Positions 832 to 62,543 of a stretch of 64,000 bases of DNA are shown in pieces; the stretch's first letter is position 1; each line of letters starts with the position of its first letter. Under the pieces are notes generated by a model. It had not been told where the DNA came from, searched no databases, and worked only from the letters and a program-made list of their open reading frames with translations. This stretch comes from a phage. The stretch lies in sequence record PZ179882.1. One strand, given 5' to 3'. The translations under genes and the position numbers were made by a program.

Positions 832-1614
832 ATGGCAGTAGTTGGAGTTCCTGGCTGGATTGGAAGTTCAGCCGTAAATGAAACGGGCCAGCGCTGGATG
901 AGTCAAGCGGCTGGTCAATTAAGATTAGGTGTTCCTTGCTGGATGAGTCAATTTGCAGGTCGCTCAAGAGAAATTATTCATACACTTGGAGCAGATCATA
1001 ACTTCAATGGTCAATGGTTCCGAGATAGGTGTTTTGAGGCAGGTAGTACACCTATAGTGTTTAATATCACTGGAGATTTAGTATCATATTCTAAAGATGT
1101 TCCTTTATTCTTCATGTACGGAGATACACCGAATGAATATGTTCAACTGAATATACATGGTGTAACGATGTATGGCCGTGGCGGGAATGGCGGTAGCAAT
1201 AGTCCTGGCTCAGCTGGGGGTCATTGTATTCAAAATGATATTGGTGGGAGACTAAGAATTAATAATGGCGGAGCTATTGCTGGCGGTGGCGGTGGCGGTG
1301 GCGGCGGATATTATTCTCCTTTTTCACAAATGAGATTGACCTTTGGCGGTGGCGGCGGTCGTCCGTTTGGCGCTCCGGGCGGATCTATTGATATGCAATC
1401 AGGAGCAACTGCTGGTACTATTTCTGCGCCTGGCGCAGGGTCTGTGAACGGTATCTACAACGGCGGGTCTGGTGGTGAAGTTGGCTCCGCAGGAGGTAGA
1501 TGTAATATTCGTGGTCAAGGATATGAATACGATGGCGGAGCTGCTGGTTATGCCGTCATAGGGTCTACACCGACATGGCAAAACGTTGGAGCAATATATG
1601 GTCCAAGAGTATAA
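832..1614 (+). CDS. 38: T2-type receptor-recognising adhesin gp38 with glycine-rich motifs
   Basis: 260 aa. N-terminus [37 protein letters not shown] matches remembered conserved gp37-binding domain of T2/K3-type gp38. Poly-Gly islands flank variable segments. ATG at 832 with GGAG Shine-Dalgarno. Confidence 0.8.
1282..1308 (+). repeat. (GGN)9 codon repeat encoding poly-Gly in gp38
   Basis: ggcggtggcggtggcggtggcggcgga; a second shorter GGN run at about 1341-1357. Confidence 0.8.
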
Positions 1615-49958: not shown

Positions 49959-50429
49959 TTAATCATGTTTCCACACCCCATCGGTATTTGACCAAAGTCG
50001 CTGATTATCTGATCCTCGCCACAGCTTTTTGGTCGGAAGATTTTTCTCATACTTCCCATCAATAATAACATCAACATATTTAAGCATTTCTAGTTGTTTA
50101 ATATCTTCAAATTTATATCCTGTCCACAACCAAATGCTTTTATTGGGATAAAGATTTTTTACTGTTTGAACAATGCAATGAACAACATCTCGGTTATCAG
50201 GATAGAGAGGGTCTCCTCCAGTTATAGTTAATCCTTCTATATAATCATTATTCAAACATTCAATTAATTGTTCTAGTGTTTCACCAGTGAATGGAACGCC
50301 ATTTCTAGCGTTCCATGTTGATTTATTATAACACCCTTCACATTTATGCAAACAACCTGTAACGAAAAGAACGACCCTGCATCCAGGGCCATTCACAAAA
50401 TCGCAAGGATAAAATCTATCATAATTCAT
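49959..50429 (-). CDS. nrdG: Anaerobic ribonucleotide reductase activating protein NrdG (radical SAM)
   Basis: 156 aa; CxxxCxxC cluster (CLHKCEGC); ATG verified. Confidence 0.88.
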   Translation of the reverse strand: MNYDRFYPCDFVNGPGCRVVLFVTGCLHKCEGCYNKSTWNARNGVPFTGETLEQLIECLNNDYIEGLTITGGDPLYPDNRDVVHCIVQTVKNLYPNKSIWLWTGYKFEDIKQLEMLKYVDVIIDGKYEKNLPTKKLWRGSDNQRLWSNTDGVWKHD

Positions 50430-52243
50430 TGGTGTTTAACCCTATGCATGATTTCTTTATTTTTTCCAAGATTAAATCCGCGCTCGTTCGGATTTCCCAA
50501 ATAGCCACATGTTCTTCTTATTGTGTTCATCTTTTTAGGATCAGTTTCTCCACAAATAGAACAAACAAATCCGTTTTCAGTAGGAGTCATTTCATGGGTA
50601 CTTCCACACGTAAAACATTTATCTACTGGCATATTAACACCAAAATAATCTAAATGTTGTGCAGCATAATCCCATACAGCCTCAAGACCTTTTAGATTAT
50701 TTTTCATATCAGGAAGTTCAACATAAGAAATGTGACCGCCTGTCGCGATGAAATGATATGGGGCTTCGCGAGAAATCTTTTCAAACGGAGTAATATTTTC
50801 TTCTACTGAAACATGGAAACTGTTAGTGTACCAGCCTTTATCGGTAACATCTTTTACACTTCCATATTTTTCGGTATCAAGTTTACAGAAGCGATAGCAC
50901 AGGTTTTCAGCAGGAGTAGAATACAAGCTAAAAGCAAAACCAGTTCTTTCAGTCCACTGCTTAAGATGAGCATTCATTTTAGTTAAAATTTCTTGTCCAA
51001 TATCACGACCGACAAGAATATTCAATTCGTGAATACCAATGTATCCTAAGGACACTGAACTTCTACCGTTTTTAAATAACTCAATTATATCGTCATCGGG
51101 TTTAAGACGAACCCCGAATGCACCTTCTTGATAAAGAATAGGAGCAACAGTAGCTTTAACTCCTTTTAAGGAACTAATTCTACACATCAATGCTTCAAAA
51201 CATAAATTCATTCGCTCATTGAACAATTCAGTAAATTTCTGTTCATTGAACTGTGTTCCAATATAAGAATCTAACGCAATACGAGGAAGATTCAGTGTTA
51301 CAACACCAAGATTATTACGTCCATCAAGAATTTCATTACCAGTCGAATCTTTCCATACGCCCAAGAAACTACGGCAACCCATTGGAGAAACAGGAATAGA
51401 TGAACCAGTGATAGCTTTATTGTTCTTAGCTGAAATAATATCAGGATACATTCTTTTGCTTGCACACTCTAGAGCAAGCTGCTTAATATCATAGTTCGGA
51501 TCGTCTTTATAAAGATTAACACCCTCTTCAACGAACATAACAAGTTTAGGGAAAATAGGAGTTATCCCATCACGACCGAGACCTTTAATACGATTTTTCA
51601 GAATTGCTTTCTGAATCATTCGTTCAGTCCAGTCAGTTCCAGTACCAAATGTAATTGTTACAAAAGGCGTTTGTCCATTTGAACTAAAGAGAGTATTTAC
51701 TTCATATTCATAAGCTTGGAACGCATCGTATACGTCTTTTTCTGTTTTAGATTGGGCATAATTCAATGCATCAGCGATTTGCCATTTTTCTGCGTCCTCA
51801 ATATGTTTTGCATAGGTGCGTTTAACATAAGGAGAAAGTACTTTGTCTACATTCGCAAAAGTCGTTCCGCCGTATTGATGGGAAGCAACTTGCGCAGTAA
51901 TTTGCGCCATAATTGCAGTAGCAACGCCAATTGATTTAGGAGTTTCAATCTGTGCATTACCAAGCTTAAATCCGTTTTCAAGCATTCCTTTTAAATCTAC
52001 TAAACAGCAATTAGTAAATGGAAGAGCAGGGGAATAATCAATATCGTGGAAATGGATAATTCCGCTTTCATGCGCTTTCATAATAAAAGACGGGACCATA
52101 TTTTTGGCAATGTGTTTAGACACAATACCAGCCATAAGGTCCCGTTGAGTTGGAAAAACACGAGAATCTTTATTAGCATTCTCGTTTAAAAGGTCTTTAT
52201 TAGTTTTATGAATCAATCCTTCAATTTCTTTTTCAATTGTCAT
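50426..52243 (-). CDS. nrdD: Anaerobic ribonucleoside-triphosphate reductase NrdD (uninterrupted)
   Basis: 605 aa in one frame; C-terminal glycyl-radical motif RRTCGYLG and Zn ribbon CFTCGS...CSIC. Confidence 0.92.
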   Translation of the reverse strand: MTIEKEIEGLIHKTNKDLLNENANKDSRVFPTQRDLMAGIVSKHIAKNMVPSFIMKAHESGIIHFHDIDYSPALPFTNCCLVDLKGMLENGFKLGNAQIETPKSIGVATAIMAQITAQVASHQYGGTTFANVDKVLSPYVKRTYAKHIEDAEKWQIADALNYAQSKTEKDVYDAFQAYEYEVNTLFSSNGQTPFVTITFGTGTDWTERMIQKAILKNRIKGLGRDGITPIFPKLVMFVEEGVNLYKDDPNYDIKQLALECASKRMYPDIISAKNNKAITGSSIPVSPMGCRSFLGVWKDSTGNEILDGRNNLGVVTLNLPRIALDSYIGTQFNEQKFTELFNERMNLCFEALMCRISSLKGVKATVAPILYQEGAFGVRLKPDDDIIELFKNGRSSVSLGYIGIHELNILVGRDIGQEILTKMNAHLKQWTERTGFAFSLYSTPAENLCYRFCKLDTEKYGSVKDVTDKGWYTNSFHVSVEENITPFEKISREAPYHFIATGGHISYVELPDMKNNLKGLEAVWDYAAQHLDYFGVNMPVDKCFTCGSTHEMTPTENGFVCSICGETDPKKMNTIRRTCGYLGNPNERGFNLGKNKEIMHRVKHQ

Positions 52244-53750: not shown

Positions 53751-53966
53751 TTACCCCAATTTAACCATACAATCGCCGTATTTCCACTTAGAAATAGACT
53801 TTTCACCATTAGAATAATAAACTTCGAGTTTAGCACGATTATTTTTAATTTGAATAACCTTGGCTGTCATCAAAGTTCCATACCCATAATAAACTGCAAC
53901 TTCATCACCTACATATACCGCGCTTCCGCGGTAATCATGAATATAGTCAGTTCCTTCGAGCATCAT
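53751..53966 (-). CDS. Hypothetical protein, 71 aa
   Basis: ORF track; ATGA coupling with nrdC. Confidence 0.5.
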   Translation of the reverse strand: MMLEGTDYIHDYRGSAVYVGDEVAVYYGYGTLMTAKVIQIKNNRAKLEVYYSNGEKSISKWKYGDCMVKLG

Positions 53967-54226
53967 TTAAAATATTCTCGCAGTTGGTCAAATCCACCAA
54001 TATGACTTCCATCAGGAGCAAATACCTGGGGCATTGTCAAGCCGATTTGAGTATCACGACCTAGTTTAGTCAGAAGCTCAGCAATTTTCTCATCATCAAA
54101 AACACCTTTTTCCGGCATAATGTTGATAAATTCAAACGGCTGTTTCTTCACGGTCAAAAGACGTTTTGCATTATCGCAATACACACATTTATGAATGTTG
54201 CTATCATAACCATATACTTTAAACAT
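53963..54226 (-). CDS. nrdC: Thioredoxin/glutaredoxin NrdC
   Basis: 87 aa; MFKVYGYDSNIHKCVYCDNAKRLL with CVYC redox motif matches remembered T4 NrdC. Confidence 0.88.
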   Translation of the reverse strand: MFKVYGYDSNIHKCVYCDNAKRLLTVKKQPFEFINIMPEKGVFDDEKIAELLTKLGRDTQIGLTMPQVFAPDGSHIGGFDQLREYFK

Positions 54227-54227
54227 A

Positions 54228-54470
54228 TTATTCCTTAATTCCTAGTACTTGTTTAAAAGTCTCGTCGTAATCAAGACTTTGGCCCGTTTGTTCTTTATGT
54301 TTGTATATAATATCACTTACTTCTGATAGCATATTTTTATATGAACGAGTTAAAGCAGATTTAAGCACGCTGTATCTATCAGGAAATTTACCATGTTCAT
54401 TATAATAAGCTATTGCTAATTCACGGACTGCCTTTTCAGCAGCCTCCATATATTCTTTACGCTTGGTCAT
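54228..54470 (-). CDS. Hypothetical protein (nrdC.1-like), 80 aa
   Basis: ORF track. Confidence 0.5.
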
Positions 54471-54472
54471 TT

Positions 54473-54862
54473 TTAATCCAAAATATTATTAGGCATTGGT
54501 TGAACACTCACAAGTTCTTTAAAGAACTCAGTAGAGTCAGGCAATTTAACCATTTCCGGAGCATGCTTACTGAATTTATGTTTACATTGACGGCATTTAT
54601 ATTCAAGCTCTGGTTTACGCCAGTTAATCAATTGAACTTGTTCAGTACCGCATTCAGGGCAATTAGGAACGTTTTTAGAAGCTCTTTCACGTCGTTCAAC
54701 CATAGCCATAATAGCATCCCATGCTGGAGGTTTAAAATCTAAATCGTCGCAGCCGTGAATCTTTCCACGCATTTCTAGATCGTCTTCTTCACCAGCCATA
54801 ATAATTTTAATTAAACTGGAATTACTTGAAGCTGCAATGTCTTCTAATAAACGCTTTTTCAT
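54473..54862 (-). CDS. Zinc-ribbon protein, 129 aa
   Basis: CPECGTEQ...CRQCKHKF four-Cys motif. Confidence 0.5.
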
Positions 54863-55788
54863 TTCAATACCTCAATAGCATTACGTAAACCATTTGCTTT
54901 GGCGGTTAAAGCCTTAAGAACTTTAGTATGATCTTCAATCTGTTTTTCAACTTCAATTAAGCGTGTATTAAGATATTCGCGTTCTTCGCTCAGATTATCA
55001 GCCTTTTCTGCTTTAGGTTCTTTTACAACTGGCTTATACGTATTAGGGTTCTTCAATTTAATTAGAATGCGTGAACTGTATAACATTGAACCATTATCTT
55101 CGGTTTCATCATACATTTCCACTACGTCCATCATCTCCACCATCGTGCAGAGTTTATAAGACAACGAACGAATAGTTTTGTTGTGCTTATTAATTTCTCT
55201 AGCTGTCATGGTGCCGAGATTACGTGAGTAATAATAAGGAACCTGGATATTAATTAATACTGATGAACCACCTGGCTTGTGTGTTACTTCATCAGCAATA
55301 ACCCAGTCCTTAACATGAACTGTATTTGTACGGTCATCGCCCGCGGTAAATAGTTTACGAGCATGCTTAAAAAGCATATTCACTTGGTCATTGAATTGAC
55401 AGGCGAATTTATCAGCAAATTTAGTTTCAGGAATGGTAGATAACCAATCAGCCAAATGGGTCTTTTTAACATCGTTAACAATAGTAAATTCAACCAAATC
55501 GGTTATAGATGTCGCAGATTTAATGAAGCTCGGCTTCATAAAGTTTTTAATGTTATCACTAGCTACAGTAGAAGATAACAGACGAGAACGTTTAAACCAT
55601 TGAAGCAAATTGCCTAACGAATGAGAATAAGCGTTTTGAGTATCTTTACAGATATGATTTTCCTGGCCAACATATTGAAGGAAATCACGAAGAATATTAT
55701 TGATTACTGCTCTGTGCCCGATCTGATAATTACGATGTTTAGTAATAAGACTGTCAAAATAATCAATATAATGTTTACGAGTTTTCAT
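54859..55788 (-). CDS. Member A of four-gene paralog array, C-terminal coiled coil (309 aa)
   Basis: Shares SRLLS and LF+xxRKL/ASRL-type motifs with the three following ORFs; C-terminal heptad-like segment. Confidence 0.55.
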   Translation of the reverse strand: MKTRKHYIDYFDSLITKHRNYQIGHRAVINNILRDFLQYVGQENHICKDTQNAYSHSLGNLLQWFKRSRLLSSTVASDNIKNFMKPSFIKSATSITDLVEFTIVNDVKKTHLADWLSTIPETKFADKFACQFNDQVNMLFKHARKLFTAGDDRTNTVHVKDWVIADEVTHKPGGSSVLINIQVPYYYSRNLGTMTAREINKHNKTIRSLSYKLCTMVEMMDVVEMYDETEDNGSMLYSSRILIKLKNPNTYKPVVKEPKAEKADNLSEEREYLNTRLIEVEKQIEDHTKVLKALTAKANGLRNAIEVLK

Positions 55789-58829: not shown

Positions 58830-59234
58830 TCAATTTTCAATTTTACTAAATATACAGAATAAGATGGAACAGACTATATAAGCACCACACACAGATTGAA
58901 CTAATACCATTCCAAAGAACCAAACAATATTATCAAACAATGTCTGTTTTACGTCGAAAGGACGTAAACTTACAGTAATATTATCACCTTTTTCTATTGA
59001 AGAATACATCTCTGGGGAAATATATTCACTAAATCTATAACCGTCTTTGAGTTCATATACGGCAATAAACGATAAACTAGACCCTTTTCCTTGTGTTCCT
59101 GTAATGGTATTAACTACAGTAACATCATAATCTTTATAATGCATATAATCATTAATTGCGTAATAACCATATGCAACTACTATACATAAACAACATATCA
59201 ATAAATTCAATCTTTTAATTATCAACCGTTTCAT
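58830..59234 (-). CDS. Hypothetical membrane protein, 134 aa (N- and C-terminal TM segments)
   Basis: ORF track; ATG verified. Confidence 0.5.
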   Translation of the reverse strand: MKRLIIKRLNLLICCLCIVVAYGYYAINDYMHYKDYDVTVVNTITGTQGKGSSLSFIAVYELKDGYRFSEYISPEMYSSIEKGDNITVSLRPFDVKQTLFDNIVWFFGMVLVQSVCGAYIVCSILFCIFSKIEN

Positions 59235-59289
59235 AATAATCTCAATTAAAAGGGCTTAGAACCATTATACCATCCTTGGTATAAAGCGG

Positions 59290-59817
59290 TTATGCGAGTA
59301 CCGTCTTTAACCGTTCTTCAAACTTCCGAAGAGTATTTTGGCGTTCAGCTCTTTGCTTTTTGTAAGTTTCAATACGCTCTGAAATGAGAGAGTATCGTTC
59401 ATTTACTGATTCTTTCATAAAATCAGGAATTTCACGAGAAGCTTTAATCTCGTCAAATTTATCAATAACAGCTTGCTCTTCAGCAATTAAGTTATCATAC
59501 ATTAAAATATCTTTCTTGATGAACTCAATATCTTCTTGAGTTACACGAGACATTTTAGATGCTTTATCCTTTTTGTACTGTTCGTTAGTATCACGAGACC
59601 AGTGTAATGTACGATTTTTATTCGTATTCTTGTAAATTTCTACAATACCGATCTCATCAATAATAACGATCCAATTCCAACGGGATTTGTAAATTTGTCC
59701 TCCATCAACAGTGATTTCACCTCCGATTGAGATGTCGTTAAAGAACTTGCTTTGCGCTTCAGATTTAAATTTGCCATCGTTGTAATTTACTAAGTTGAAA
59801 ATATCTTTAGCGTTCAT
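59290..59817 (-). CDS. Hypothetical protein, 175 aa
   Basis: ORF track; ATG verified; GGAGG SD lies inside inverted repeat of promoter 59846-59875. Confidence 0.55.
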   Translation of the reverse strand: MNAKDIFNLVNYNDGKFKSEAQSKFFNDISIGGEITVDGGQIYKSRWNWIVIIDEIGIVEIYKNTNKNRTLHWSRDTNEQYKKDKASKMSRVTQEDIEFIKKDILMYDNLIAEEQAVIDKFDEIKASREIPDFMKESVNERYSLISERIETYKKQRAERQNTLRKFEERLKTVLA

Positions 59818-59820
59818 TTT

Positions 59821-59875
59821 CTGTTCCTCCGTAGTTGATAGGGTAATAATACCACAGAGGAACAGTCTTGTAAAC
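59821..59875 (-). promoter_or_regulatory. Early promoter with 9-bp inverted repeat straddling the -10
   Basis: GTTTAC 59875-59870, TGgTATTAT 59854-59846; IR ctgttcctc (59821-59829) / gaggaacag (59857-59865); the transcribed arm contains the GGAGG SD of the 175-aa gene. Confidence 0.55.
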
Positions 59876-59877
59876 CA

Positions 59878-60192
59878 CTAAAAGAAACTTCTTTCACAAT
59901 TTTTTCCACTGAACCATGCACTTACCGCTTTCTTGGTCTCAGGAGCAGTGTTATCCATAAACCATTCAAAGGCAGCCTTTTTATGATTCTGGAGGGCTTC
60001 TCGGGCTTTAATCTGCTCACGGTCTATTAACACTAACATATGAGCCTTTCTTGTCACCATGGACTTCTTATGATTTTTTGAATACTCCCAGTCATTTGTC
60101 CATCGCATTGTCGTTGCGAATTGAAATACTGCTTCTTTAATTTTAGTTTCGTAAATTTCACGAGCCTTTGAGTATAACATCACTACCTCCAT
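59878..60192 (-). CDS. Hypothetical protein, 104 aa
   Basis: ORF track; ATG verified. Confidence 0.5.
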   Translation of the reverse strand: MEVVMLYSKAREIYETKIKEAVFQFATTMRWTNDWEYSKNHKKSMVTRKAHMLVLIDREQIKAREALQNHKKAAFEWFMDNTAPETKKAVSAWFSGKNCERSFF

Positions 60193-60262
60193 TCACCAGT
60201 TTAATTCTAGTCATCTTTTTAATGGCAGTCCATATAATCTATTTCTGAACTGTCTTTTTGTC

Positions 60263-60982
60263 TTAGGATTCTTCTAAATGTCTTTTCTGAAAAGTTGATA
60301 CCATACTACGATACGGTTCATTTGGATACCCGTGTTTTATAGCTTCCTTTGTAAATTTTCTCCATCCATATTTAGTTTCTTTCCAAAGCTCGAATAATTC
60401 ATCTTCATATTGCCATATAGTTAAATGAGAACGCTTTGCAGCTTTAATTCCATTAATATGCTTTTCTTTTACTACAGGATTACTTAGTTTCTTTTTAATA
60501 ATATTACTAACTTTTCTAACAAAAACTGGGTCCTTATATCGTTGCGAAGTTTTTATTGAAGTGTTTAATTTAGCTTCCGGTGTGGATGTGACCTCTTTCA
60601 TCTTTTTCTTCATATGCTGTATATGATTAGGATTTTTCCATAAATTTATAGAATGCTTTTTGCATTTTATCCTAGTTTCATCTGCAACCTTTCCTCCTTC
60701 ACCTCCGTATGACAGGTTAACACAGTTTTTTCCATATTTCAATTTACCTGCCATGATATATAATATTTCAGCTTGTACCATTTTATCATAATTATCAAAA
60801 ACTTCTAAAACCGTTTTTGTTAATATGTGGTCATTTGACACTTTTACACGTTCTATATAATTTCCACTACCAACATACGAATCATTGATGTTATTAGTTA
60901 TATGTCGACCATAATAGTATTTCTTAATACCTGTCTTTAAATTTAATATTTCAGTTTTATAGATAGTAAAATATTTTTTCAT
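60263..60982 (-). CDS. Basic 239-aa protein, possible degenerate GIY-YIG/Seg-like homing endonuclease
   Basis: N-terminus TIYKTEILNLKTGIKKYYYGRH...YVGSG loosely resembles GIY...YIG; C-terminal Lys-rich repeats (KLSNPVVKEKHINGIKAAKRS) resemble NUMOD-type DNA-binding modules. Weak, motif-level only. Confidence 0.45.
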   Translation of the reverse strand: MKKYFTIYKTEILNLKTGIKKYYYGRHITNNINDSYVGSGNYIERVKVSNDHILTKTVLEVFDNYDKMVQAEILYIMAGKLKYGKNCVNLSYGGEGGKVADETRIKCKKHSINLWKNPNHIQHMKKKMKEVTSTPEAKLNTSIKTSQRYKDPVFVRKVSNIIKKKLSNPVVKEKHINGIKAAKRSHLTIWQYEDELFELWKETKYGWRKFTKEAIKHGYPNEPYRSMVSTFQKRHLEES

Positions 60983-61947
60983 TTTAATAATACCGTTTCA
61001 GCAATTTCTTCCCAACCGTTTTTGTCGGTCATAATAAAGTCAGCAAGATAAAGAGCAGTACGCAGTGAAACATTGCGTAAACGATTAACATTAACTTTCA
61101 TCCATGATAATGCTTTATAAGTTTCTTCATCAGAAAGACCGCGCTTTTGCATCATGTCGGTTGAAAGAATAACATCTTCAACCCTGACCATAATTTCTTC
61201 ATTAGTGTGAACACCCAAATCTAAATAAACTGAGCGGGACACTAATGCTTGTAAATGTGGAGCAAGTTTAGTACCACGGTCTAATTCGCGGTCAATATCA
61301 ACGTTTGTGATAAAAACAATCGTTCCTTTAAATTCAAACTCACGCTCAATGCCTTTTTCTTCTAAGTAAGAAGATGCAGTGCTCCAGCAGACTTTACGGG
61401 TCTCTCCAGTGTCCAGAGCAGCTTTTAGAAGATTAAGAATGTCCATATCAGAGAAAACATCCACATCATCAATCAAAAGGACAGAATTCTCTTCACGATT
61501 ATTCCAAAGCTGCTCATAAAGACCAATACCAGAGATTTTACCATTAATGCTTTTATATTCAATGTATCCATTATCATTTGCTTTATTTAAAGCTTTATCT
61601 AAAGAATACGTTTTACCAATACCTGCTGCGCCAGAGATAATTAATGAACGAATATTTCCATTAATAATACCATTCGTCATCATTCCCATAACATTAAATC
61701 TTTTATTAATGCGGGTTTTCATATCTTCATATGATTCTTTAACTTCTTCAACTTTTACACCATCATATGAAATATCTGATTTGTAAACCCAAACACCGCG
61801 ACGTTTACCGTCAATTTCAACAAAAACTTTACCATCTCCTTGTGCATCTACCGGAGCATTATCTGGGAACCATTCGCCTAAGAGCTCAAAAGTTCCAGAG
61901 ATTTCTTTACCGAAGTAGATACCCTTATTGATAGTTACAGTTTTCAT
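60979..61947 (-). CDS. P-loop NTPase (Walker A GAAGIGKT, Walker B LLIDDVD)
   Basis: Track ORF begins at GTG; ATG 61945-61947 with GGAG SD downstream of promoter 61984-62013. Confidence 0.6.
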   Translation of the reverse strand: MKTVTINKGIYFGKEISGTFELLGEWFPDNAPVDAQGDGKVFVEIDGKRRGVWVYKSDISYDGVKVEEVKESYEDMKTRINKRFNVMGMMTNGIINGNIRSLIISGAAGIGKTYSLDKALNKANDNGYIEYKSINGKISGIGLYEQLWNNREENSVLLIDDVDVFSDMDILNLLKAALDTGETRKVCWSTASSYLEEKGIEREFEFKGTIVFITNVDIDRELDRGTKLAPHLQALVSRSVYLDLGVHTNEEIMVRVEDVILSTDMMQKRGLSDEETYKALSWMKVNVNRLRNVSLRTALYLADFIMTDKNGWEEIAETVLLK

Positions 61948-61983
61948 TTTATTCTCCAATTTCACATTTGTTTTGATAGGGTA

Positions 61984-62013
61984 ATAGTATCACACTACTA
62001 CCCTGCTGTAAAC
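61984..62013 (-). promoter_or_regulatory. Early promoter upstream of P-loop NTPase gene
   Basis: GTTTAC 62013-62008, 18-nt spacer, TGaTACTAT 61992-61984. Confidence 0.5.
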
Positions 62014-62016
62014 AAT

Positions 62017-62280
62017 TTATTTTAATGTTTGCCAAATTTTTACTGCTTCGCGACGAGATACTTCTACAGCTCCAAGTTCTACAGCTTTTTGGCGTCGCCG
62101 AGCGTGTAAGTCATAATGTTTAATGCGTTTATCTTGAAACCAAGAACGTTTCATTCCTATTGCTTCTGCCATTTCGTGAAGCTCTTCAATATCTCCATCA
62201 GTGAACATATGACAATTTTTAGTTGGATGACCGCGAAGTTTCCATCCATGATTCATTAAAACATCTACGTAAACTGTCAT
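62017..62280 (-). CDS. DUF4031-like small protein, 87 aa
   Basis: MTVYVDVLMNHGW...GHPTKNCHMFTDGD...HYDLHARRRQKAVELGA pattern as I recall for DUF4031; unverified. Confidence 0.5.
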   Translation of the reverse strand: MTVYVDVLMNHGWKLRGHPTKNCHMFTDGDIEELHEMAEAIGMKRSWFQDKRIKHYDLHARRRQKAVELGAVEVSRREAVKIWQTLK

Positions 62281-62426
62281 TGATTCTTCTCCAAATAAGT
62301 TTCGATAATTTTCTGGGCAAGATAAACCGCGTTATCTTCAGTTGCGTCTTCTAAGAAACTTTCAAAACACTCTGAAATTTCTTCTGTATCAATCAACTTT
62401 TTTACTTCAATTGGTGTAATTTTCAT
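62277..62426 (-). CDS. Hypothetical acidic protein, ~49 aa
   Basis: Track ORF 62277..62495 would run through promoter 62464-62493; internal ATG 62424-62426. Confidence 0.4.
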   Translation of the reverse strand: MKITPIEVKKLIDTEEISECFESFLEDATEDNAVYLAQKIIETYLEKNQ

Positions 62427-62463
62427 TTTGTTTTTCCGTTTAAGTGTTTGTTTTGATAGTTGT

Positions 62464-62493
62464 ATAGTACCATAAAGCTTTATGCTTGTAAAC
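62464..62493 (-). promoter_or_regulatory. Early promoter following terminator
   Basis: GTTTAC 62493-62488, 18-nt spacer, TGgTACTAT 62472-62464. Confidence 0.55.
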
Positions 62494-62513
62494 AATTTTG
62501 TGAAAAATTTTTG

Positions 62514-62541
62514 AAATAAAAAAGGGAGCCCGAAGGCTCCC
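62514..62541 (-). terminator. Rho-independent terminator downstream of nucleotidyltransferase gene
   Basis: Hairpin gggagcc-cgaa-ggctccc plus U-tract. Confidence 0.6.
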
Positions 62542-62543
62542 TA

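Follow-up and report, generated by a model that had tools for sequence, protein, structure and literature searches.

Between nrdC.10 and nrdC.9, which follow one another directly in bacteriophage T4, the phage sequence PZ179882.1 carries an additional open reading frame. The question raised by this locus is what the additional gene encodes and how it came to lie there. The stretch of DNA analysed here, referred to as the window, is 64,000 nucleotides long and belongs to the genome of a Tequatrovirus (T4-like phage); its region 59200-62300 is matched by 731 T4-like phage records, the best of which is 98.4% identical. A preliminary description of the window had read the gene as homing-endonuclease-like. 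This reading has been borne out by a match to PHROG 314, by similarity to the T4 proteins SegA-F, by relatives that match Pfam families and by a profile alignment with I-TevI, and we consider it very probable that the gene encodes a free-standing homing endonuclease of the T4 Seg (GIY-YIG) family. The gene and its immediate surroundings comprise the following features:

60263..60982, minus strand: predicted Seg-type gene for a free-standing homing endonuclease of the GIY-YIG family, 239 aa and a stop codon, from the open reading frame, PHROG 314 and orthologues
60979..61965, minus strand: nrdC.10, AAA-type ATPase-like, upstream of the endonuclease gene, which its 3′ end abuts
60193..60262, minus strand: ancestral intergenic spacer between nrdC.10 and nrdC.9, 70 nt, with the same sequence in T4 and outside the mobile cassette

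The reading frame is intact, begins with ATG and has no long rival, and its 239-aa product is basic as originally described (pI 9.78, with 38 Lys and 9 Arg). Its start overlaps the TGA stop codon of nrdC.10 in the tetranucleotide ATGA, and nrdC.9 (59878..60192) lies downstream after 70 nt. This downstream gap, also pointed out in the preliminary description, corresponds to 60193..60262 and is not an insertion mark, since T4 has the same spacer sequence. The GC content of the gene and its cassette is 29%, versus 35-39% in the neighbouring genes.

Family membership can be read from several independent comparisons. PHROG 314, annotated 'homing endonuclease', is matched over the whole length of the protein (E 1.8e-30). 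Similarity to the characterised Seg proteins of T4 was found by BLASTP and phmmer for SegB, SegF, SegE, SegA, SegC and SegD, at 22-33% identity and with E-values of 1e-11 to 7e-6 that are pairwise or refer to a tiny database. An exhaustive HMMER search of a library of 1.84 billion proteins returned 1447 relatives, where a word-indexed protein search gave 2 matches only. In an alignment of the protein with 68 relatives, Pfam family PF19835 (SegE_GIY-YIG) is matched by 25 of the 69 sequences, PF01541 by 20 and NUMOD3 by 23. The protein itself behaves differently: the search against PF01541 and NUMOD profiles that the preliminary description had proposed was negative for it at E-values up to 10, and neither the whole protein nor any of three sub-domains gave a direct match to PF01541, PF19835 or PF07460 within that limit, so that PF01541 does not come near its threshold. 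An NCBIfam scan of the protein and a phmmer search against PDB sequences likewise gave no match, and Foldseek found no GIY-YIG structure in the PDB. The matches in BFVD are Seg-like endonucleases. We regard the assignment to the Seg family as secure on sequence grounds despite the negative Pfam result, because PHROG 314, the T4 Seg proteins, the Pfam matches of the relatives and the I-TevI profile all point the same way.

Two other identities were considered for the gene. An HNH (Mob-type) endonuclease was rejected, as neither Pfam nor PHROG returned an HNH family and the structural matches of the protein point to GIY-YIG rather than HNH. An intron-encoded origin was also rejected: Rfam detects no RNA family anywhere in the 64,000-nt window, and therefore no group I intron. 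The gene lies between other genes, with no intron or intein, and is present or absent at a fixed site, as expected of the Seg type.

The predicted protein is modular, with three domains that can be delimited as follows:

60692..60982, minus strand: GIY-YIG catalytic domain, residues 1-97, from predicted structure and conserved residues
60413..60688, minus strand: Lys-rich helical repeat region, residues 99-190, a predicted degenerate NUMOD3-like DNA-binding linker
60266..60406, minus strand: C-terminal three-helix domain, residues 193-239, common to T4 SegA and SegF

Structure was predicted with alignment-based AlphaFold, since single-sequence AlphaFold reached a pLDDT of only 42. The predicted N-terminal domain consists of two beta strands (residues 4-14 and 20-29), a helix (41-48), a further strand (52-62) and a second helix (65-86), which is the beta-beta-alpha-beta-alpha fold of the GIY-YIG superfamily. 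The counterpart of the GIY...YIG signature is T6-I7-Y8 ... Y23-Y24-G25. The loose resemblance originally noticed by eye at the N-terminus is thus real: across the protein and its 68 relatives Y8 and Y23, the two tyrosines of the motif, are nearly invariant and G25 is invariant. The same alignment shows Y36, G38, G40, E72 and N89 as further invariant positions, with H27, D34, S39, G93 and G94 near-invariant. Compared with I-TevI by hhalign, the family profile gives a probability of 76% (E 2.2e-5) and pairs Y8 with Y6, Y23 with Y17, E72 with E75 and N89 with N90, so that E72 and N89 occupy the places of the catalytic Glu and the downstream Asn; searched against the PDB, the profile yields a marginal match to I-TevI only (E 0.068).

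One catalytic element of I-TevI has no counterpart. I-TevI has an essential arginine, R27, on its first helix. No Arg of our protein can be aligned with it; residues 30-40 form a loop, and the region contains H27 and the motif D34-x-Y36-x-G-S-G, which T4 SegA-E have as well. R26 is present in the protein, yet it is not conserved in the family. The counterpart of R27 is missing because the helix that bears it is replaced by the H27/DxYxGSG loop. Its absence is probably a family trait and may not signal inactivity, since the active T4 Seg enzymes also lack R27.

The preliminary description had further likened the Lys-rich C-terminal repeats to NUMOD-type DNA-binding modules, and support for this is indirect. 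Five helices are predicted in the Lys-rich region (101-116, 118-132, 135-149, 152-166 and 169-190), and residues from about 100 to 190 form four or five helical units of some 17 residues each, with the pattern xxP(E)xxxKxSxxxKxx. In full-length homologues NUMOD3 is matched, with E-values as low as 1e-21 for the whole protein, by stretches whose counterpart here is residues 99-173. The repeats of the protein itself, however, stay below significance for NUMOD3 (PF07460) in a Pfam search up to E 10, so the likeness is carried by helical architecture and homologues and not by a direct match. The C-terminal three-helix domain is probably a helix-turn-helix DNA-binding module.

The closest characterised systems are the T4 Seg enzymes. 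They share with our protein the N-terminal pattern Y...YxGxH...DxYxGSG...E...N..GGxGG and, in the case of SegA and SegF, the same modular plan with a Lys-rich helical middle and a C-terminal three-helix domain; they too stand alone between conserved genes and occur only sporadically in related phages. Unlike them, the protein described here carries 2-3 extra residues between strands one and two and falls below the Pfam thresholds for SegE_GIY-YIG and NUMOD3; the sequence identity is limited to the 22-33% given above, and the insertion site, nrdC.10/nrdC.9, is a different one. I-TevI is more distant (~16-18% identity; catalytic domain PDB 1LN0): it is encoded in the T4 td intron, whereas the gene here is not in an intron, and our protein has neither the R27-bearing helix nor a zinc finger. 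RB32ORF093c, which T6 has as the 'putative site-specific intron-like DNA endonuclease' AXN58132.1, occupies this very position and is the gene described here. The genes of T6, RB14 and RB51 are 98.7-99.6% identical to ours, and the RB32ORF093c/T6 copies differ from it by few substitutions, for example T55, which is S in the other sampled copies.

How the gene is set into the locus becomes apparent from a comparison of phages with and without it. In T4, nrdC.9 (53946..54248) comes immediately after nrdC.10 (54343..55320) and no other gene intervenes; the site is also empty in T2 and occupied in T6, which agrees with the earlier suggestion of a gene that is extra relative to T4. The reading as a homing-endonuclease-like gene was to be abandoned if the protein had no profile match and T4 had an orthologue at this position. 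The first is true of the protein, but T4 has no orthologue here, and the rule is therefore not triggered. The junctions define two further features:

60267..60999, no strand: whole cassette missing from T4 and T2, 733 bp replacing about 34-38 bp of the empty allele, from BLAST breaks and junction alignments
60979..60999, minus strand: recoded 3′ end of nrdC.10, with 12 of 21 nt differing between carriers and empty genomes

In the BLAST comparison with T4, homology stops at window position 60266 (T4 54334) and restarts at window position 61000 (T4 54373), with 38 bp of T4 replaced. Junction alignments are identical to the base across nine carriers, and likewise across ten non-carriers. The empty allele reads ...GAAGAAATYGCT|GAGGTTACTCTTCTGAAATAATTCATAAGAGGMCTT|CTAWGACAAAAAGG and the occupied allele reads ...GAAGAAATYGCT|GAAACGGTATTATTAAAATG...gene...GAAGAATC|CTAAGACAAAAAGG, the left break lying 21 nt before the end of nrdC.10. 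Carriers end nrdC.10 with GAA ACG GTA TTA TTA AAA TGA (ETVLLK*), empty genomes with GAG GTT ACT CTT CTG AAA TAA (EVTLLK*). The encoded tail is thus almost the same, although 12 of 21 nt differ in the recoded stretch; in the flanks around it, differences amount to only some 1-3%. It is likely, judging from the sequence comparison, that the recoded end of nrdC.10 marks the target or immunity site of the enzyme.

The empty site of T4 is itself atypical. At NC_000866 54335..54372, opposite window positions 60979..60999, it reads GCTACGGGTTAC..., versus GCTGAGGTTAC... in other empty phages, and this variant frameshifts the tail of nrdC.10 exactly at the homology break (ATGYSSEI* versus AEVTLLK*). 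An in-frame intermediate, GCTACGGTTAC, occurs on an IMG/VR contig, and the shared ACGG is also present in the occupied allele. The variant could be resistant to cleavage or could be the footprint of a past occupancy.

A second genus of phages has a related gene at the same address. Klebsiella phage Nispero encodes a full-length homologue of 46% identity (vB_KaeM_Nispero gp68; L006 3501..4217) directly downstream of an nrdC.10 orthologue (74% aa identity). The setting differs in that the genus (Jiaodavirus) and the downstream neighbours are others, and in that the Jiaodavirus homologue starts 8 nt after the nrdC.10 stop, whereas the gene here overlaps it. In Jiaodavirus the homologue is sporadic, with at least 80% of its region covered in 7 of 207 matching records; most of the Jiaodavirus matches listed extend over the flanks only. 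Compared with the empty Jiaodavirus Roth04 (L024 about 1075..1130), the break begins in the last few codons of nrdC.10. At the stop of nrdC.10, ...GCTGARGTWAC....CTGAAATAATT is common to the empty alleles of the two genera, and neither occupied allele has it. The replaced segment of the empty Jiaodavirus allele also holds a GGGAGGAGAAATCCTCCC hairpin.

Distribution was assessed in GenBank phage records, IMG/VR scans having given 4 loci and 1 locus. Copies of at least 90% identity are present in 67 GenBank phage records, including T6, RB14, RB51, RB6 and RB7, with carriers also among Shigella, Yersinia and Salmonella phages. The nrdC.10-nrdC.9 junction is uninterrupted in 434 of the 503 records with the locus, T4 and T2 among them. 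The cassette is thus confined to a minority of otherwise near-identical phages and always sits at the same point, in the last codons of nrdC.10. Over 900 bp to the left and to the right, carriers and non-carriers are separated by no fixed SNP, and divergence between the two groups equals the diversity within them right up to the junction. The cassette therefore occurs on many flank haplotypes, a pattern that would be compatible with repeated transfer or recombination. A carrier-specific flank haplotype, as left by a co-conversion tract, was not found within the same 900 bp on either side.

Some copies appear to be decaying. Frameshifts occur in RB10 (L021 1401..2127; +7 bp in the GGEGG codons) and in G157lw (L022 1401..2119; -1 bp), and BFVD entries include split or truncated copies in RB3 (96+159 aa) and AR1 (165 aa). 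The existence of frameshifted copies indicates that the gene is dispensable. Such decayed copies would fit a homing cycle in its phase of decay, although some may be sequencing errors. The seven sampled intact copies are at most a few residues apart.

The gene has few signals of its own for expression. Neither a promoter nor a Shine-Dalgarno sequence of the endonuclease gene was found, there is no T4 late promoter (TATAAATA) near it, and a hairpin in the RNA that would mask the start codon is not significant (z -0.8). One feature lies further upstream:

61984..62012, minus strand: early-type promoter-like site upstream of nrdC.10, TTTACA-17-TG-TACTAT, a consensus match only

This site is the only candidate signal for transcribing the endonuclease gene. 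With no own or late promoter and no Shine-Dalgarno sequence, read-through and coupling are the likeliest route of expression: the gene would probably be read through from the early transcript of nrdC.10, with translation coupled at the ATGA overlap and a low level of expression.

A mechanism for the spread of the cassette can be proposed by analogy with SegB, SegE, SegF and SegG. These enzymes cleave site-specifically, leaving overhangs that are mostly 2-nt 3′ ones, at a degenerate, asymmetric site of 27 bp; they act on DNA containing glucosyl-hmC and are inherited at near 100% with co-conversion of the flanks (PMC2330249, from which cleavage by SegB and SegE and their inheritance are taken). 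During mixed infection with a cassette-less (T2-like) phage, the target bound by the enzyme described here would be long and asymmetric, roughly GCTGAGGTTACTCTTCTGAAATAATT at the 3′ end of nrdC.10, and a double-strand break would be made at or near this end in the empty allele. Recombinational repair of the broken genome, with that of the carrier as template, would then bring in a copy of the cassette. The carrier itself would be protected because the cassette overwrites the site, swapping the target for the recoded end of nrdC.10, while the C-terminal peptide of nrdC.10 is kept.

Other readings of the locus have to be weighed against such an active homing endonuclease. The gene might be a relic of the Seg family that no longer cuts DNA, persisting by drift or hitch-hiking or serving in DNA binding or regulation only; I-TevI also represses its own promoter. 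The lack of a direct Pfam GIY-YIG match, of an R27 equivalent, of expression signals belonging to the gene and of a co-conversion signature in the flanks would all fit a relic, as would the frameshifted copies in several lineages, which show that loss is tolerated. Yet the copy in the window is full length and retains every residue that is invariant in the 68 relatives, including the equivalents of the catalytic Glu and Asn; the near-identity of the seven sampled intact copies also speaks against a relic, SegA-F of T4 are active enzymes with the same R27-less architecture, and selection by an active enzyme would yield just such a precisely recoded junction. We therefore consider a relic unlikely. 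That the reading frame encodes an unrelated basic protein resembling GIY-YIG enzymes by chance is barely conceivable: it could draw on the negative Pfam, NCBIfam, PDB-sequence and Foldseek PDB searches only, and it is contradicted by PHROG 314, the T4 Seg similarity, the Pfam matches of relatives, the I-TevI alignment and the structural matches. An identity other than a nuclease is effectively excluded.

A reading that shares the nuclease but shifts its purpose is that the enzyme is kept mainly for the benefit of the phage, either by excluding nrdC-region markers of co-infecting relatives or by making breaks that drive the segmental amplification of anti-defence genes nearby. Precedents exist for both, since T4 excludes markers of T2 by means of SegF and SegG (cited in PMC2330249) and SegB of T6 promotes amplification of loci that include gp49.1-nrdC.1, the same gene block (PMC13096335), and the lineage is tied to nrdC.10 in two phage genera. 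The sequence does not, however, set this reading apart from plain selfish homing, and the absence of the gene from ~85% of relatives together with its repeated decay argues against a strong benefit. We regard this reading as improbable. A more specific version, drawn by analogy, holds that the nrdC.10-associated Seg lineage is SegB-like, its breaks excluding the nrdC-block alleles of rivals or amplifying the gp49-nrdC anti-defence genes. If such a benefit existed it would explain the same address in two genera, but we give the proposal very little weight. Selfish homing by an active Seg-type endonuclease remains our preferred account.

The gene is not new as such. In RB14, RB51 and T6 GenBank labels it RB32ORF093c, 'similar to seg putative site-specific intron-like DNA endonuclease', and many newer genomes call it 'homing endonuclease'; with T6 and some 65 further phages already annotated for it, the finding is an ordinary one. 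A literature search for RB32ORF093c, for a homing endonuclease at nrdC.9/nrdC.10 and for seg names beyond segH found no study of the gene, and it is missing from a 2010 review of mobile elements in T4. What the present analysis adds are the exact borders of the cassette and, as a probable interpretation, the recoded end of nrdC.10 as target or immunity site, together with a distribution that is sporadic and marked by decay, and an address that is conserved in Jiaodavirus. For the Seg-like enzyme of T6 and RB32 this amounts to a predicted target in T2-like phages, some 25-35 bp at the very end of nrdC.10. Should the prediction hold, this would be one more T-even homing endonuclease to shape marker exclusion in crosses of T2, T4 and T6. 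The case also illustrates that a degenerate GIY-YIG gene can be recognised by eye from sequence where Pfam fails. Beyond tidy annotation its importance is small, and a specialist would be unsurprised.

Several neighbouring features were observed in passing. A second insertion relative to T4 occupies window positions 61960..62452, between nrdC.10 and nrdC.11, and replaces 11 bp of T4. Of its genes, 62017..62280 and 62277..62495 on the minus strand, one encodes a DUF4031 protein (PF13223, E 1e-21) and one is a reading frame of 72 aa. Among 540 matching phage records, 137 cover the second insertion to at least 80%, Enterobacter phage CC31 being one of them, and it varies independently of the endonuclease cassette. 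Elsewhere in the window (49959..52243), nrdG abuts an uninterrupted nrdD of 605 aa, and hence this phage is without mobC and without an nrdD intron and I-TevII, whereas T4 carries both mobC and a group I intron in nrdD with I-TevII. Finally, a strong, bidirectional terminator-like hairpin, AGGGAGCC-TTCG-GGCTCCCT followed by a T run, lies just downstream of nrdC.11 at 62523..62542, and after it comes another early-type promoter-like site, TTTACA-17-TACTAT, at 62464..62492.
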